From an uncultured Myxococcales bacterium (lineage in GTDB: Bacteria; Myxococcota_A; Polyangia; JAAYKL01): DNA of 64,000 nucleotides. This document shows, piece after piece, positions 55,251-61,010 of this stretch (positions within the stretch are counted from its first letter, which is position 1; each line of letters opens with the position of its first letter). The stretch is taken from contig CAZHCG010000002.1 of assembly GCA_964530995.1 (NCBI GenBank), positions 23,558-87,557 of the forward strand. Reading direction: 5' to 3'. A program made the position numbers and the translations under genes. Below the pieces are notes generated by a model that saw nothing but the letters and a program-made list of their open reading frames with translations, had not been told where the DNA came from and did no database searches.

Positions 55251-57032
55251 TCAGGGACGGTAATCGTAGGCTCCGATGTCCGCGGTGACACCCGGATTTC
55301 CGGTTCCCTCCAGGTCTGTCCAGCAGTTTCCGTCCGCGTCGTGCATCGGCGCTGCCTCCTCGTCTCCCACGTCGATGCAGGGCGAGAGCTGCTGCAAACG
55401 ATAATCTCCGTCGACCCACTTGTCGTCGCTCGCATCGTAAGGAGTACCCCCATCGTCCCAGTGTCCGGAATCGACGAACAGCGGCTGCTGGTCGATGTTG
55501 CCCTGGCCCGGGTAGCCGCCCCCGACGTCGCTGTAGGAGACGACCGGCTCGCTCCCGATCTCGTCGTGAATCTCCCCGCCCTCGTCGCCCCACAGGATGC
55601 AGTTGGTCACCTCGGGCTCCGCCAGCTCGGCGTTGTAGATTCCTCCCCCCTGCTGGGCCAGATTGCCGTTGAAGACCGTGTTGATCAGCCTGGGCTCGGC
55701 TCGCGTCCCGTCGTACATGCCTCCGCCGCTGGTGGCGACGTTGCCGACCACCAGCGTGCTGAGCAACCGCGGCCCGCCGTAGCTGACCGCCACGCCTCCG
55801 CCGTTGCGTCCCGCCAGATTCGCGCTCAGATCGCAGGCGGACAGAGAGCCCTCCGTCAGCTCGATCATCGCACCGCCGCCGTCCAGCTCGGCCCGATTGC
55901 TCTCGATGCTGCAGCGGCTGAGCTCCAGGTCGGTGAACCTGACGAACATGCCGCCGCCGTTCAGCTCGGAGCTGTTTCCGCTCACCGCGGTGTCCGCCAT
56001 GACCAGCTCGCCGCGATAGGTGACGATCCCCCCTCCGCTCGCTTGCGCCGAGTTCTCCTCGACCATGCTGTCGTGGATCTCCGGACTGCAACCGTTGTTG
56101 AACAACCCTCCCCCCTCTCCGAGCGCCTCGTTTTGGCGGATTTCCGTGTCGAGGAAGATGGGGAGGCAGGCCGAGTACATCTTCTCCAGGTACAGGGCGC
56201 CGCCGTGCTCTCCGGCGCGGTTGTCCACGAAAACCGTCTCCTCGAAGACCGGCAGGCCGTTGAGCACGTAGACCGCTCCACCTCGTTCGGCCCGGTTGCC
56301 AGAAAACGTCGTAGCCACGAAGCTGGGAGTGCTGTCGTAGACGAAGACCGCTCCGCCGTCGTAGGCCGCGTTGTCCTCCAGCTCGCAGTTCGCGATCGAG
56401 GTCGACGCCGCGTTGAGGTAGATCCCGCCGCCCCGGTGGTGGGGCGACTCTCCGACCGCGTTCCCGCCTCTCACGACGAACCCGTCGAGGCGCGAGTCGC
56501 TGGCGCCCATCACCACGTGGTAGACCCGCCCGTTTCCGTCCTGCTGGCGCCCCTCCAGCACGGTCGGATGCGTTTCGGGATCGCGCTGGTAGAGATACTG
56601 CTCGTCTCCCGCGAACCCGCCGTAGGCATCGACGTGCGGGTGCAGCTTGAAGGTGTCCAGCGGGTCGCCCTCCCAGGCGCGATAGGTGCCGTTCGCAACC
56701 CAGACCGAGCAGGAGCCGAGCACCTGCGCCGCGTCGTAGGCCGCTTCGATCCCCTCTTGCAGGTCGTCGAACGCGGTCTGCCAGGTGAAGCCGCAATCAT
56801 CGTCGCTTTCGGAATCGAAGCGCACGTAGCGGATGCAGCGCCCCAGCTGGTCGGTGTAATCCGGCGGGCACCCGTTGTCAGTGTCGGCGTGGCTCTCGGT
56901 CTCGGCCTCGGTCTCCGTCTCCGTGTCCGCCTCGGCCGGGTAGAACGGCACCTCGGGATCGTCTCGCCCGGCGCAGCCGGCGACCGAGGCCGCCGCGAGC
57001 GCCAAGCCGACCAGAATCAGACGAACGCGCAT
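55251..57032 (-). CDS. Right-handed parallel beta-helix repeat lipoprotein
   Basis: Start at the internal Met (MRVRLILVGLALAAASVAGCAG). TETETEAETE acidic linker. Many GGGxY/NN.A..GGA beta-helix turns (GGAVFVYD, GGAVYVLNG, GGALYLEK, GGGMFVRF, GGGVAVSYG). Confidence 0.65.
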   Translation of the reverse strand: MRVRLILVGLALAAASVAGCAGRDDPEVPFYPAEADTETETEAETESHADTDNGCPPDYTDQLGRCIRYVRFDSESDDDCGFTWQTAFDDLQEGIEAAYDAAQVLGSCSVWVANGTYRAWEGDPLDTFKLHPHVDAYGGFAGDEQYLYQRDPETHPTVLEGRQQDGNGRVYHVVMGASDSRLDGFVVRGGNAVGESPHHRGGGIYLNAASTSIANCELEDNAAYDGGAVFVYDSTPSFVATTFSGNRAERGGAVYVLNGLPVFEETVFVDNRAGEHGGALYLEKMYSACLPIFLDTEIRQNEALGEGGGLFNNGCSPEIHDSMVEENSAQASGGGIVTYRGELVMADTAVSGNSSELNGGGMFVRFTDLELSRCSIESNRAELDGGGAMIELTEGSLSACDLSANLAGRNGGGVAVSYGGPRLLSTLVVGNVATSGGGMYDGTRAEPRLINTVFNGNLAQQGGGIYNAELAEPEVTNCILWGDEGGEIHDEIGSEPVVSYSDVGGGYPGQGNIDQQPLFVDSGHWDDGGTPYDASDDKWVDGDYRLQQLSPCIDVGDEEAAPMHDADGNCWTDLEGTGNPGVTADIGAYDYRP

Positions 57033-57181
57033 CTCCACCTCTCGCGCGGGAGCCCAGAACACCTTGGGGACGACATACCCCATTGCTCCACCATGCAAAA
57101 AATAAGGCAACACGCGTGCCAACACAACTACAACTCGGTTAGGATGTGGGTGTGGAGCCCGGCAGGGTAAGGAGGATTCCC

Positions 57182-59101
57182 ATGCGTCATTTTTCAATCC
57201 CGCTGGCCGCGCTGCTGGCCGCATCCGCGCTCTCGGCCAGCGAAGAGGCTCGGGCCGAAGATCGCCGGACGCGACCATCCGTCCACCAGCTCGAGCTCCA
57301 GCGCCACCGCGAGCCGGCTCCCGCTCCCGCGCCGGCCGATCCACCCGCGGCGCGCCCCCTCGAACAGCGCGACCCGATTGTGCAGCGAATCGTCTACGGC
57401 TACTACCCGTACTGGTCCTCCGGCTACGAGGATCTCCAGTGGGAGCTGTTGACCCACGTGGCCTGGTTCGCCATCTCGCTCGACGCCGGCGGAAGCTCGG
57501 TGGACAGCAACGGCTGGCCGGGAAGCTGGACCGGGCTGGTCGACACGGCCCACGCCGAGGGGGTTCGCGTCGACGTGGCGTTCACCCTCTTCTCGTCGAG
57601 CGCGATCGAGACCCTGCTTACCAGCGCCGCCAACCGATCGAACGCGATCGACACGATCGTTTCCGCGATCGAGGACGGCGGCGCCGACGGCGCGGCGATC
57701 GACTTCGAGGGCGTTCCCTCGGCCGCGGCGGACGGGCTGGCGACCTTCCTCGCGGAGCTGAGGCAGCGCTTCGACGAGCTGGGCTGGTACGACAAGCAGA
57801 TCTCGGTGGCCGGGCCGGCGGTCGACTGGTCCGGGGCCTTCTACCTTTCCGAGCTGATCGACGCGATCGACATCTTTTTCATAATGGGTTACGATTACTT
57901 TTGGAGCGGCTCGTCCTACGCCGGTCCGACAGGAATCGTGCTCACCGACGAGCTCTGGGGCTCGTACACCTCCCACTCCCAGCTCCGATCGATGGCGACC
58001 TACGCCGGCCAGGTCGGCGAGCAGGAGCGGGCCAAGATCGTGCTGGGCGTTCCGTACTACGGGCGCGAGTGGACCACCGCCAGCGACCAGCTCGCGGCCG
58101 CGACCTACTCCAACGTCGGCTCGGTCACCTACGTCACCGCGATGAGCGATATCGAGGACCCGGACGTCGACTCGCTTTGGGATCCGCACTCCCTGGGGCC
58201 GTGGTACGTCTGGTGGGAAGGCGCCTCCTGGCACGAGGTCTACTACGAGGACGCCGAGAGCCTGGCCTGGAAGTACCGCTTCGCCCTGGAGCAGGGGATG
58301 GGCGGAATCGGAATCTGGGCGCTGCGCTACGACGCCGGGTACACCGAGCTGTGGGACGAGATCGAGTACGCCTTCGCATCCGACTTCGCGCCGCACGAGG
58401 GCGATCGGCTCGACCCGATTCCGGTCGCCGAGCTGCCTTTCGAAGACGCGCGCGACAGCTCGGATCTGGCCGCCGGCGGGATGTTCTTCGACTGGTACTC
58501 GTGCAACGACGCGCTCGCCGAGTGGGGGCGCGAGCACGTCTACCGGGTCGAAATCTGCCACCAGGGCACGCTGACCGCCTCGGTCGCGGGAGACGGCGGG
58601 GGCGTCGACAACGACGTGCACATCCTGTCCGCACCGTCCGAGGACGCCTGCCTGTCCCGCGGCCACAGCGAGGCCTCCTGGGAGGTGACGCCGGGGAGCT
58701 GGTACGTGGTGGTCGACACCTACGTCGAAGGGGGCGTCCCGTGCTGGGGCCCGTACGAGCTGACGATCGAAGGCGAAGGGATCCCCAATCCGCAGTGCGA
58801 CGGCGGACTGGTCTGCCAGCAGGGGGAGTGCGTCGATCCCGGCGCCGACGCGGACACGGACGCCGACTCCGACGCGGACTCCGACGTGGACACGGATGCC
58901 GACACGGACGCCGACGCCGACGCCGACTCCGACGCGGACGCCGACACGAGCTCCGGGCACGATACCGGGGCGGACAGCTCGACCGCGGCCGACGCGGAGG
59001 AAAGCTACCAGCCGGGCGATTCGTGCGGGTGCAGGACGCCGGGCGCCCGGCTGGAATCAGAACCCCTGGAGCTGCTGGCGAGGCTGGCCGGACAGCTCTG
59101 A
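57182..59101 (+). CDS. Secreted GH18-family (chitinase-like) glycoside hydrolase with a C-terminal module and DTD repeat tail
   Basis: Signal peptide. YGYYPYWS GH18 start motif. Catalytic-region variant DGGADGAAIDFEG (D-x-x-D-x-D-W-E with D4 to A and W to F, Glu retained). MGYDY substrate-binding motif. C-terminal DADTDADSDADSDVDTD tail. Confidence 0.75.
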   Translation: MRHFSIPLAALLAASALSASEEARAEDRRTRPSVHQLELQRHREPAPAPAPADPPAARPLEQRDPIVQRIVYGYYPYWSSGYEDLQWELLTHVAWFAISLDAGGSSVDSNGWPGSWTGLVDTAHAEGVRVDVAFTLFSSSAIETLLTSAANRSNAIDTIVSAIEDGGADGAAIDFEGVPSAAADGLATFLAELRQRFDELGWYDKQISVAGPAVDWSGAFYLSELIDAIDIFFIMGYDYFWSGSSYAGPTGIVLTDELWGSYTSHSQLRSMATYAGQVGEQERAKIVLGVPYYGREWTTASDQLAAATYSNVGSVTYVTAMSDIEDPDVDSLWDPHSLGPWYVWWEGASWHEVYYEDAESLAWKYRFALEQGMGGIGIWALRYDAGYTELWDEIEYAFASDFAPHEGDRLDPIPVAELPFEDARDSSDLAAGGMFFDWYSCNDALAEWGREHVYRVEICHQGTLTASVAGDGGGVDNDVHILSAPSEDACLSRGHSEASWEVTPGSWYVVVDTYVEGGVPCWGPYELTIEGEGIPNPQCDGGLVCQQGECVDPGADADTDADSDADSDVDTDADTDADADADSDADADTSSGHDTGADSSTAADAEESYQPGDSCGCRTPGARLESEPLELLARLAGQL

Positions 59102-59156
59102 CAGGTCCGACCCGTCGGACAAGTCCGACCCCGACCTGTCAGACCCGTCCGACCTG

Positions 59157-59987
59157 TCAGACCTGTCTGACCTCTCCGATCAACCAGGCCGCCCCTTCCG
59201 GCGAGTCGAGCAGCCTCGTCTGCTCGGACGGCTCGATCCGCGGCGGCTCCTCGGCGTGGCCGGGACCGGCGCCGGACTCCTCGCGCTCCTTGCGCAGCCG
59301 GCGGACCTCCTCCATCGGCAGCAGCTCTCCGAGCAGCCGGTCCAGGTAGAGCACCCCGTCGAGGTGGTCGAGCTCGTGCTGCCACAGCACGGCGTCGTAT
59401 CCCTCCGCCTCGGTGACCAGCTCTTCGCCGTCGACCGCCGTGTGCCGCACCCGAATCCAGCGGTTGCGGCGCACCATGCCCCCCACTCCCGGCACCGAAA
59501 GACAACCCTCGTAGCCCTCGACGCAGTCGTCGGAGCGCTCCAGGATCACCGGGTTGCGGACGAAGACGGTCTCGGGATGATCGATCTTGTAGCCCAGCAT
59601 CAGCGTCGCCACGCGCAGCGAAAGCCCGACCTGGGGGCCGGCCAGGCCGACCCCTCCCTCCTCGTTCATCGTGCGCTCCATCCGAACCGCCACCTCGTCG
59701 AGATCCAGCCCGGGGGGCACCTCGCGCGCGCGCCTCCTGAGCACGGTGCTGTCGTCGCAACCGCGCACGACGACTTCGAGCTCATTTTGAACGGCCTCCA
59801 CCAGTGGCCGCTCCTCGTCCGTCCACTCGAAGCTCTCCGCCGCGGAGCTCGCCTCCGGCCTCGCCGGCTCGGAAGGCGGCGGAGCTCCGGTCGGCGTCGC
59901 GGGCCGGCGTCCCGCGCAACCCGCCAGCCCGGCGGCTCCGACTGTCGTGGCGGCGGCGATGAAATTTCTTCTCGTCAATTCCTTCAT
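59157..59987 (-). CDS. def: Peptide deformylase homolog with an N-terminal Tat-type signal/lipobox and ~70-aa linker
   Basis: Start MKELTRRNFIAAATTVGAAGLAGCAG (twin-Arg plus lipobox). PDF motifs GVGLAGPQVG, EGCLSVPG and HELDHLDG are all present. Confidence 0.8.
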   Translation of the reverse strand: MKELTRRNFIAAATTVGAAGLAGCAGRRPATPTGAPPPSEPARPEASSAAESFEWTDEERPLVEAVQNELEVVVRGCDDSTVLRRRAREVPPGLDLDEVAVRMERTMNEEGGVGLAGPQVGLSLRVATLMLGYKIDHPETVFVRNPVILERSDDCVEGYEGCLSVPGVGGMVRRNRWIRVRHTAVDGEELVTEAEGYDAVLWQHELDHLDGVLYLDRLLGELLPMEEVRRLRKEREESGAGPGHAEEPPRIEPSEQTRLLDSPEGAAWLIGEVRQV

Positions 59988-59992
59988 TCGAG

Positions 59993-60922
59993 CTACTCCA
60001 TCCCCAGCAGGCGGGCGATCCCCGCCGTGTAGCGTTCGACGACCCAGGGGCCGACGAACAGGTGCTCCAGCGCGCCGAGCGCCAGGAAAGGCCCGAAGGG
60101 GATCCGCGACTTGAGAAACCCCGGGTCCGTCGCCGGCCGCTCTCCGTCTTGCTCTCGTTCCTCCTCCCCGATCTCCTCTTCGAACACCGGCTCGCTGTCC
60201 AGCCCCCGACGTCGGCGAGCGCGAATCACCACCCCCGCGATCAGCCCCTGGATCGCGCCGGCGAAAAGGGCGAACAGCGCCCCGCGGATACCGAAAAACG
60301 CCCCGATCATCGCCACCAGCCTGGCGTCCCCCTCGCCCATGCCCGGCTTGCCGGTCAACAGCCGGTAACCGTCGACGAACAGCAGGCGAATCGCCGCGTA
60401 TCCTCCCACCGCCGCGATCAACGGCTCCCGCCAGCCGAGATCGAGCAAAAAGGCGTTGGCCGCGAGGCCGACGGCGATTCCCGGCAAGGGAATCACGTCG
60501 GGAATCCAGTAGGTCTCCAAATCGATCAAGCCGGCGGTGACCATCGCCCAGCAGAAGGCGAACAGGACGAAGTACTCGGCCAGCCCCTGCTGGAACGAGG
60601 GCGGATCGGCCAGCAGCGTGAGCCGGATCACTCCCACGGACAGCAGCGCCAGCGCCGCCTCGACCACCACGTAGCGAGGCGAGAATCGCGCTTTGCACTC
60701 GCGGCAGCGGCCGCGCAGCACCAAAAAAGAAACGATCGGCACGTTGTTGTACCAGCGAACCGGTTTTCCGCAGGAGATGCAGTGCGAGGCCGGCCTCAAG
60801 ACCGACATCTCTCGGGGCCAGCGCACGATCACCACGTTGGCGAACGAGCCCCACAGCGCGCCGAACACCGCGGCCGCAGCGTACCACTGCCAGGCCGGCA
60901 GCAGGTGGTACGAATCGAACAT
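59993..60922 (-). CDS. pilD: Prepilin peptidase (A24 family, PilD)
   Basis: N-terminal tetra-Cys zinc motif (CISCGKP...CRECKARF), polytopic, conserved Asp-containing GxGDxRL motif (GMGEGDARLV). Confidence 0.8.
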   Translation of the reverse strand: MFDSYHLLPAWQWYAAAAVFGALWGSFANVVIVRWPREMSVLRPASHCISCGKPVRWYNNVPIVSFLVLRGRCRECKARFSPRYVVVEAALALLSVGVIRLTLLADPPSFQQGLAEYFVLFAFCWAMVTAGLIDLETYWIPDVIPLPGIAVGLAANAFLLDLGWREPLIAAVGGYAAIRLLFVDGYRLLTGKPGMGEGDARLVAMIGAFFGIRGALFALFAGAIQGLIAGVVIRARRRRGLDSEPVFEEEIGEEEREQDGERPATDPGFLKSRIPFGPFLALGALEHLFVGPWVVERYTAGIARLLGME

Positions 60923-61010
60923 CGACGGGAGTCTAGCAGAAAACCGGCGCGGCCGGGGAGCTCTCCCGACCGCGCCGTCTACGAACAGGTCGCTCTCGAA
61001 GCGAACGGGA

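Follow-up and report, generated by a model that had tools for sequence, protein, structure and literature searches.

A 64,000-nucleotide (nt) stretch of DNA from an uncultured Myxococcales bacterium (contig CAZHCG010000002.1, positions 23,558 to 87,557 of the forward strand; the whole stretch is referred to below as the window) carries a peptide deformylase (PDF) paralogue. Judged from its sequence, this protein is probably exported by way of twin-arginine translocation (Tat), anchored as a lipoprotein and active on formyl peptides outside the cytoplasm. The gene is complete and lies on the minus strand at 59157..59987, where its translation is given by an 831-nt open reading frame (ORF) of 276 codons plus a stop. 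In the usual view, PDF works strictly co-translationally, docked on the ribosome, in the cytoplasm and in organelles, and it is an antibiotic target on that basis. The combination of a PDF core, a Tat signal and a lipobox supports the prediction of an exported, lipid-anchored protein, and the existence of a large clade with export and lipidation signals would imply that deformylation also takes place outside the cytoplasm.

Deformylase domain and export signal

The PDF catalytic domain spans amino acids (aa) 79–218 (59334..59753, on the minus strand like every other part of the gene described here). Pfam PF01327 (Pep_deformylase) matches this segment with 126.7 bits against a gathering cutoff of 22.8 (E = 7.9e-37). 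The NCBIfam model TIGR00079 passes narrowly (106.4 against a cutoff of 103.95), and NF001159 falls slightly under its cutoff (122.5 against 125). The original prediction held that all three PDF catalytic motifs are intact, and this was borne out by the profile, the fold and the motifs themselves: motif 1 is GVGLAGPQ (aa 112–119, 59631..59654), motif 2 is EGCLS (aa 160–164, 59496..59510) and motif 3 is HELDH (aa 204–208, 59364..59378). In a column-by-column comparison with E. coli Def, G112, G114 and Q119 align with G43, G45 and Q50; E160, C162, L163 and S164 align with E88, C90, L91 and S92; and H204, E205 and H208 align with H132, E133 and H136. Cys162, His204 and His208 are the metal ligands and Glu205 is catalytic, and all of the catalytic and metal-binding positions are 100% conserved in the group of signal-bearing homologues described below (the Tat clade). 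Additionally, the residues of the S1' pocket (V113, V200 and L201) share the hydrophobic character seen in canonical PDFs.

Using phmmer, 79 distinct PDF chains in the PDB were matched at E ≤ 1e-10, the best being Thermus thermophilus 1V3Y and Thermotoga maritima 1LME. An AlphaFold2 model generated from a 50-sequence family alignment has a mean predicted local distance difference test (pLDDT) score of 85, with values above 93 from aa 51 to ~240. When this model was compared with the PDB by Foldseek, the top match was T. maritima 1lme (target-normalised template-modelling score 0.90, root-mean-square deviation 2.1 Å), and all matches among the best 50 of 162 (E ≤ 0.001) were PDFs. Thus, by profile, by its three motifs and by its alpha+beta fold, the window protein belongs to the PDF family. 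Housekeeping Def proteins are ~150–200 aa in length and signal-free, whereas this protein is 276 aa long with a Tat motif and a lipobox and, on these sequence features, falls outside the housekeeping class. A periplasm-type disulfide among Cys77, Cys155 and Cys262 was considered through covariation and rejected, as these residues lack consistent co-occurrence.

The N-terminus of the protein, MKELTRRNFIAAATTVGAAGLAGC, is organized as a Tat signal ending in a lipobox. The signal peptide covers aa 1–23 (59919..59987) and consists of an n-region with an Arg-Arg (RR) pair followed by a 16-aa, Ala/Gly/Thr-rich hydrophobic region (h-region) with a mean Kyte-Doolittle hydropathy of 1.25. Within the signal, T5-R6-R7-N8-F9-I10 (59958..59975) fits the Tat consensus S/T-R-R-x-F-L-K. 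The lipobox, L21-A22-G23-C24 (59916..59927), fits the consensus [LVI][ASTVI][GAS]C, with Cys24 as the predicted lipidated first residue of the mature protein.

Conservation of this signal was examined in homologues. A protein search of ~5.8 billion sequences returned 3705 matches, and the top 120 are mostly 220–290 aa in length and come from metagenome genomes of Polyangia, Myxococcota or 'Deltaproteobacteria'. More than 100 Myxococcota metagenome homologues, ~50–65% identical, keep [ST]-R-R-x-F-[LIV] and L-[ATS]-G-C, a clade consensus that matches the textbook ones for Tat signals and lipoboxes. In an alignment of 50 sequences with a mean column identity of 49%, R6 and R7 never vary (50/50) and C24 is at least 90% conserved; of 118 aligned homologues, 114 have the lipobox Cys. 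Regular expressions for the RR motif and the lipobox matched 94 and 105, respectively, of the top 120 homologues, and the non-matching sequences are mostly visibly truncated fragments. Among 100 signal-bearing sequences, the −1 position of the Tat motif is Ser or Thr in 51, the +3 position is Phe in 74 and the +4 position is Leu, Ile or Val in 86; the −1 position of the lipobox is Gly in 83, Ser in 10 and Ala in 7. The distance from RR to Cys has a median of 16 residues (range 12–28). The residue that follows the lipobox Cys is Ala in 73 homologues and Gly in 21, and is never Asp or Lys. The only non-PDF families that recur among the members are PF10518 and TIGR01409, detected at E ≤ 1 in 18/50 and 14/50, respectively. 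The export and lipid anchoring that had been predicted from the window's own Tat signal and lipobox are therefore supported by the invariance of RR and the near-invariance of the Cys.

In a neighbour-joining tree of the catalytic domain the Tat clade forms one group, which holds 36 of the 40 sampled members together with N-truncated fragments. Domain identity is 0.61 within the clade, 0.39 to canonical PDFs and 0.39 to a second set of lipoprotein PDFs with general secretion (Sec)-type signals (see below). As judged from the alignments and the tree, the Tat/lipobox signal is a conserved, selected trait of a monophyletic clade. Those members that have a source name all come from metagenome genomes or metagenomes, and databases label these proteins just 'peptide deformylase'.

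An N-terminal segment of this kind could in principle serve as an uncleaved anchor, keeping the PDF on the cytoplasmic side of the inner membrane, where it would process nascent membrane proteins. Nascent chains targeted by the signal recognition particle (SRP) escape soluble PDF (PMC5454389), so a membrane tether would be sensible, and basic residues are also found after the Cys (C-A-G-R-R in the window). However, we give this arrangement next to no credence: the 16-aa h-region is too short and too polar for a transmembrane helix, the stretch ends in the near-invariant lipobox Cys, the conserved RR-x-F-L is a Tat targeting signal, and N-terminal positive charges would put the C-terminal domain outside.

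Between the lipobox and the catalytic domain, the original prediction described a Pro/Ala/Ser linker of ~70 aa. This segment in fact comprises a shorter tether and a structured pre-domain. The tether is a disordered, Pro/Ala-rich stretch of ~26 aa (aa 25–50, 59838..59915; composition A7 P7 R3 S3) with low pLDDT (10-residue block means of 56–67 over aa 21–50), and it varies in length and sequence across homologues. The conserved pre-domain (aa 51–78, 59754..59837; F-E-W-T-D-E-E-R-P-L-V ... E-V-V-V-R-G, in full ESFEWTDEERPLVEAVQNELEVVVRGCD) is specific to lipoprotein-type PDFs. It is modelled at a pLDDT of 93–94, and its residues E59, F70 and V73 are at least 90% conserved.

The catalytic domain is followed by a conserved C-terminal helix, LGELLPMEEVRRLRKEREE (aa 219–237, 59277..59333; modelled as helical over 225–237). 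In this helix (LLPMEEVRRLRKE), R232 never varies, and conservation reaches at least 90% at P224, M225, E227, V228, R229 and R230. The remainder of the protein is a variable acidic/Pro tail (aa 238–276, 59160..59276) with a pLDDT below 50 and a D-x-[LI]-E-G-[AS]-like end, here DSPEGAAWLIGEVRQV. Many PDFs of the Tat clade finish in D-x-[LI]-E-G-[AS]-x-x-[LIV] after a variable acidic/Pro stretch, and a looser pattern, [LIMF]-[EQ]-[GN]-[ASLP] within the last 30 residues, is found in 57 of 120 homologues. The terminal motif might act as a sorting signal, bind a partner or be autoinhibitory.

The start codon

The only in-frame start codons 5' of the PDF domain are ATG1, TTG4, GTG63 and GTG74. If translation began at GTG Val63 or Val74, the product would be an ordinary cytoplasmic PDF with a canonical PDF N-terminus, and the upstream 'signal' would be untranslated; the original prediction named a true start at a downstream Met, with the same consequence, as what would overturn it. 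Both codons are in frame, and a GAGGAG sequence lies 11 nt before GTG63. Nevertheless, we find a mis-called start very improbable. The upstream 62–73 codons are conserved as protein in more than 100 homologues at 50–65% identity, with RR invariant and the Cys at 97%, a conservation for which a downstream start cannot account. Indeed, residues 5' of every internal start codon are conserved as protein in the 50-sequence alignment, and aa 51–62, which lie upstream of GTG63, hold the near-invariant E59 and are modelled at a pLDDT above 93. The Shine-Dalgarno-like GAGGAG is itself made up of the codons of a conserved Glu-Glu.

The nucleotide sequence of the upstream region was also compared with that of a 91%-identical orthologue (L003). 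Over codons 1–75, 24 codons differ, with 6, 8 and 19 substitutions at the first, second and third positions and no insertion or deletion (indel). As a substitution pattern, third-position bias without indels is the mark of a translated, weakly constrained region. Codons 41–70 have a coding-type composition, with a G+C fraction of 0.8–1.0 at third positions (GC3) and 0.3–0.65 at second positions (GC2). At two other loci, L004 and L086, a strong Shine-Dalgarno sequence (GGAGG) lies 7–8 nt before the signal-encoding ATG, and in L004 an in-frame TGA directly precedes that ATG; no internal start candidates were found at these two loci, where the scan ended at an early 'LR' match. In the window, the ATG of the PDF gene is 5 nt past the stop of the upstream gene, and a GGAG is found inside the last codons of that gene. 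Conservation, substitution pattern and Shine-Dalgarno sites all speak against an untranslated upstream segment, and the refutation that the original prediction named for itself fails.

A second use of the internal codons would be a dual start, in which ATG1 yields the exported lipoprotein and GTG63 yields a cytoplasmic isoform, so that one gene, perhaps the sole def, would supply both compartments. In the window and in L003, L083, L084 and L088, a GTG or TTG precedes the conserved LR motif by ~18–21 codons, and in the window, L003 and L084 this codon has a Shine-Dalgarno-like sequence before it. We regard a dual start as improbable, since GTG is the commonest Val codon at 67% G+C and its occurrence by chance is expected, the Shine-Dalgarno-like sequence is a by-product of Glu-Glu coding, and no such internal starts were seen in L004 or L086 within the same limit of the scan. 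Additionally, the clade is ~39% identical to canonical PDFs, a divergence expected for a specialised paralogue. The gene also never adjoins fmt (formyltransferase), which was seen neither among the six nearby ORFs scanned within ~8 kb in the window nor beside the PDF gene at the 13 other loci surveyed, nine of them with Pfam-annotated neighbour lists.

Proposed extracytoplasmic role

In the mechanism we propose, the accessory PDF would fold and bind its catalytic metal (through Cys162, His204 and His208) in the cytoplasm. Cytoplasmic folding and metal acquisition are a standard rationale for use of the Tat pathway. The Tat translocase would then export the folded PDF, as the conserved signal suggests, and the conserved lipobox points to diacylglyceryl modification of Cys24, cleavage by signal peptidase II (SPII) and N-acylation. 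The mature PDF would hang from a membrane on its Pro/Ala tether of ~26 aa. With Ala or Gly following the Cys, an outer-membrane destination is likely, from which vesicles or the cell surface could be reached.

As aligned and modelled, the catalytic core, the oxyanion-hole residues and the hydrophobic S1' pocket are shown to be those of ordinary type-1 PDFs. With its active site unchanged, the exported PDF would be expected to hydrolyze the N-formyl group of formyl-methionine (fMet) peptides outside the cytoplasm. Since the periplasm and the cell surface are devoid of ribosomes, deformylation there could not be co-translational, and the substrates would have to be pre-existing formyl peptides. 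SRP binding blocks deformylation, and inner-membrane proteins (especially N-out proteins) and signal peptides keep their fMet (PMC5454389; also PMC12690207). Of fMet retention on SRP-targeted proteins it has been stated that 'the functional role ... if any, is not known' (PMC5454389), and an exported PDF would bear on this open point, the fate and role of the formyl-Met kept by SRP-targeted membrane and exported proteins.

If this reading is correct, PDF lipoproteins of the envelope, surface or vesicles would act on fMet termini that escaped the ribosome-bound enzyme. Candidate substrates are fMet on N-out membrane proteins, released signal peptides and their fragments, formyl peptides of foreign origin (prey, competitors or dead cells, i.e. 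necromass) and peptide antibiotics that are formylated. Loss of the formyl group would free N-termini for aminopeptidases, inactivate formylated toxins or, in host-associated species, erase formyl-peptide immune signals. Predatory or degradative bacteria might in this way use N-blocked peptides as nutrients or defend themselves against formylated peptide antibiotics, and the Bacteroidales relatives described below might alter the formyl-peptide signals that reach host immune receptors. Both Myxococcota and Bacteroidales live as degraders and have many lipoprotein hydrolases in their envelopes, which would fit an N-terminus-unblocking role. The protein would also be a clear case of Tat exporting a small mononuclear metallohydrolase that is normally cytoplasmic.

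Several observations weigh against an exported deformylase. Generic Tat hidden Markov models remain below their cutoffs at aa 4–23 of the window protein (PF10518 TAT_signal, 15.9 against 22.7 bits; TIGR01409, 14.7 against 16.7). The highly conserved C-terminal helix looks like the one with which cytoplasmic PDFs dock on the ribosome, and an exported enzyme offers no explanation for it. Neither in the window nor at the 13 other loci does a conserved neighbour point to a substrate, and tblastn with the clade domain and E. coli Def found no second PDF in the window. Lastly, Fe(II)-PDFs are oxygen-labile, so that an oxidising compartment would pose a difficulty if the enzyme did not use a different metal.

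The protein could also be exported and yet not be a general fMet-peptide deformylase. It might be an envelope decoy for PDF-inhibitor antibiotics, sequestering actinonin-like hydroxamates, or an enzyme dedicated to a specific formylated natural product or toxin; it might, for example, process formylated Trojan-horse peptides prematurely, or inactivate bacteriocins that are formylated or peptides of the gramicidin type. An inhibitor decoy would likewise need an intact metal site. The clade has active-site surroundings of its own, with Tyr or Trp at the position of E. coli E87, Gly at that of R97 and, in addition, Trp202, and its pre-domain and C-terminal motifs are unique. Myxococcota are also predators that meet the peptides of competitors. 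In contrast, the clade keeps its catalytic Glu and its oxyanion-hole residues without variation, for which a pure decoy would have no need, the residues of the S1' pocket are inside the canonical PDF range, and no biosynthetic or resistance cluster is consistently adjacent. We therefore judge a decoy or dedicated detoxifying enzyme to be unlikely, and the Tat-exported lipoprotein deformylase of extracytoplasmic formyl peptides remains the most likely reading.

Relatives, known systems and gene neighbourhood

A profile search of 1.84 billion cluster representatives gave 195 representatives at E ≤ 1e-30. The best 150 of these 195 include more Tat-plus-lipobox proteins and many proteins of 215–260 aa whose lipoprotein signals are of the classical hydrophobic kind, such as MKRFLTVIFLLLIVFSC and MRRVLLLLLLVLAGC. 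In an alignment of these Sec-type lipoprotein PDFs (n = 24), the lipobox Cys and all catalytic residues are invariant (24/24), and a pre-domain motif, L/W-x-x-x-E-x-x-L, and a C-terminal helix, L-x-P-x-x-E-[YV]-R-x-x-R, resemble those of the Tat clade. The W-x-x-x-E-x-x-L form of the pre-domain motif recurs both in the Sec-type proteins and at Bacteroidales loci. In species-representative genomes, lipoprotein-type PDFs were found at 18 of the 80 best loci, of which 5 are Tat-type from Myxococcota and 13 are Sec-type, mostly from Bacteroidales (L012, L016, L019, L030, L036, L040, L048, L050, L055, L067, L072, L073 and L080). The 13 Sec-type loci, which include one from Bacteroides sp. CAG:545, carry the motif G-x-W-[ST]-x-x-E-x-x-L-I. 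The PDFs at the 13 loci are ~196–227 aa in length, plus one 465-aa ORF (L030), with EGCLS and HExxH intact.

The Sec-type proteins ('Deltaproteobacteria' and Bacteroidales; e.g. P0219 and P0158, and those of L016, L036 and L055) thus have the same lipobox Cys, pre-domain, catalytic motifs and C-terminal helix as the Tat clade. They differ in using hydrophobic Sec/SPII signals without RR and, at ~39% domain identity, are no nearer to it than canonical PDFs are. Their occurrence in 13 mostly Bacteroidales genomes would indicate that exported PDFs are not restricted to Myxococcota. By sequence, the window gene belongs to the Polyangia/Myxococcota branch, the one with Tat signals, within a broader set of lipoprotein-type PDFs. 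For a common ancestry of both types, the only hints are the pre-domain and C-terminal motifs that they have in common; in the catalytic domain, identity between the types (0.39) equals that to canonical PDFs. We tentatively raise the possibility, for which the balance falls a little short of even, that a dedicated extracytoplasmic deformylation step exists in bacteria of two or more phyla, with Tat as the route in Myxococcota and Sec as the route in Bacteroidales and other 'deltaproteobacteria'.

Among the relatives there are also tandem proteins of 330–410 aa with two PDF-like domains (P0127, P0129, P0130, P0140, P0143, P0145, P0150, P0151, P0154, P0159, P0160, P0167, P0168 and P0170). Motif 1 of the first domain reads A-A-P-M or A-A-N-Q instead of A-A-P-Q, so this domain may be degenerate, and no obvious signal peptide is present.

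Compared with bacterial type 1 (1B-like) Def (EC 3.5.1.88; 1LME, 1V3Y and E. coli 1BS4), the window PDF is alike in fold (36–40% identity), in motifs 1–3, metal ligands and hydrophobic S1' pocket, and in the C-terminal helix. It differs in having ~78 extra N-terminal residues (Tat signal, lipobox, tether and pre-domain) and a 39-aa C-terminal tail, in being predicted to be extracytoplasmic and lipid-anchored, and in being unlinked to fmt. Organellar PDFs (plant PDF1A/PDF1B, the human mitochondrial enzyme and that of the Plasmodium apicoplast), which are among the structure and sequence matches, likewise place a PDF core after a membrane-crossing targeting extension and are the nearest conceptual precedent. 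Whereas these enzymes enter compartments that translate with formyl-Met and perform the canonical job there, the window PDF has a bacterial Tat/lipoprotein signal.

Tat-dependent lipoproteins have been described in Streptomyces and haloarchaea. These likewise combine a twin-arginine motif, an h-region and a lipobox Cys, and presumably a pre-folded, cofactor-loaded protein is exported and then lipidated; to our knowledge, and within the literature that was searched, no Tat lipoprotein with a PDF as its cargo has been described. PDFs of phages and accessory PDFs carried by mobile elements (PMC12690207; Vp16 PDF, 5MTC) are extra copies beside the housekeeping def, often with altered termini. They are cytoplasmic, whereas the Tat clade is chromosomal, defined by its export signal and found in variable, housekeeping-type contexts. 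The 2025 survey of accessory PDFs makes no mention of signal-bearing forms (PMC12690207), and the searchable literature yielded no account of a PDF that is exported, periplasmic, Tat-dependent or a lipoprotein.

In the window, the PDF gene is preceded by a prepilin peptidase gene, pilD (59993..60922, minus strand; 309 aa; PF06750 and PF01478), whose stop lies 5 nt before the PDF start. A terminator-like, GC-rich hairpin and T-run after groEL (60945..60977, minus strand; 13-pair stem with 12 GC pairs) probably marks the 5' boundary of a pilD-PDF transcription unit, and pilD and the PDF gene therefore probably form a unit of two genes that lies downstream of groES-groEL. On its other side, the PDF gene faces a convergent GH18 glycosidase gene. 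The exact PDF protein is also found on two identical Logan metagenome contigs (L001 and L002) with the same neighbours, and in L003, a Polyangia metagenome-assembled genome, the PDF orthologue is 91% identical and PilD 93% identical.

The operon with the prepilin peptidase that had been proposed for this gene stands as a local adjacency with a 5-nt gap, but allows no conclusion about function. When all retrieved loci were searched with PilD by tblastn, PilD-PDF adjacency was seen only in L001–L003, which represent the same or sister species, and in 0/13 of the other loci examined. At L004–L007, L083, L084, L086, L088 and L090–L093, there is no prepilin peptidase, no recurrent neighbour, no fmt and no second PDF. 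A functional tie to the prepilin peptidase or to type IV pili was rejected on these grounds and because no pilus genes lie near nine further loci. The prepilin peptidase neighbour is incidental and lineage-specific, without functional weight.

At two loci, M3-family oligopeptidases with lipoprotein or Sec signals of their own are encoded 3–5 kb from the exported PDF (L084, 11615–13690; L086, 14021–15913). Oligopeptidases are known degraders of signal peptides. As a candidate conserved partner, the M3 oligopeptidase was treated as a coincidence, given that it is non-adjacent, occurs at only two unrelated loci and is absent elsewhere.

Several other features were noted near the window gene. The GH18 and PDF genes converge across a 55-nt gap, which is filled by a 9-bp tandem repeat (59105–59173; consensus GTCCGACCC, ~8 copies) with a palindromic core, GTCNGAC. 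The repeat extends into the final codons of the PDF gene and could act as a terminator-like array in both directions or as an array that binds protein. The GH18 glycosidase (57146–59101, plus strand) has a signal-like N-terminus and an acidic D-[AST]-D-A repeat with a 6/18-nt period, especially at 58839–58948. Its C-terminal tail, comprising the last ~35 codons (...DSCGCRTPGARLESEPLELLARLAGQL), resembles a myxobacterial C-terminal sorting tag. Further along, at 55251–57344 on the minus strand, lies the gene of a large beta-helix/Chlamydia-PMP-repeat protein (PF02415, PF13229 and DUF1565), whose N-terminus is lipoprotein-like (…LILVGLALAAASVAGCAG) if translation is taken to begin at an internal Met. 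The neighbourhood of the PDF gene is rich in envelope proteins.

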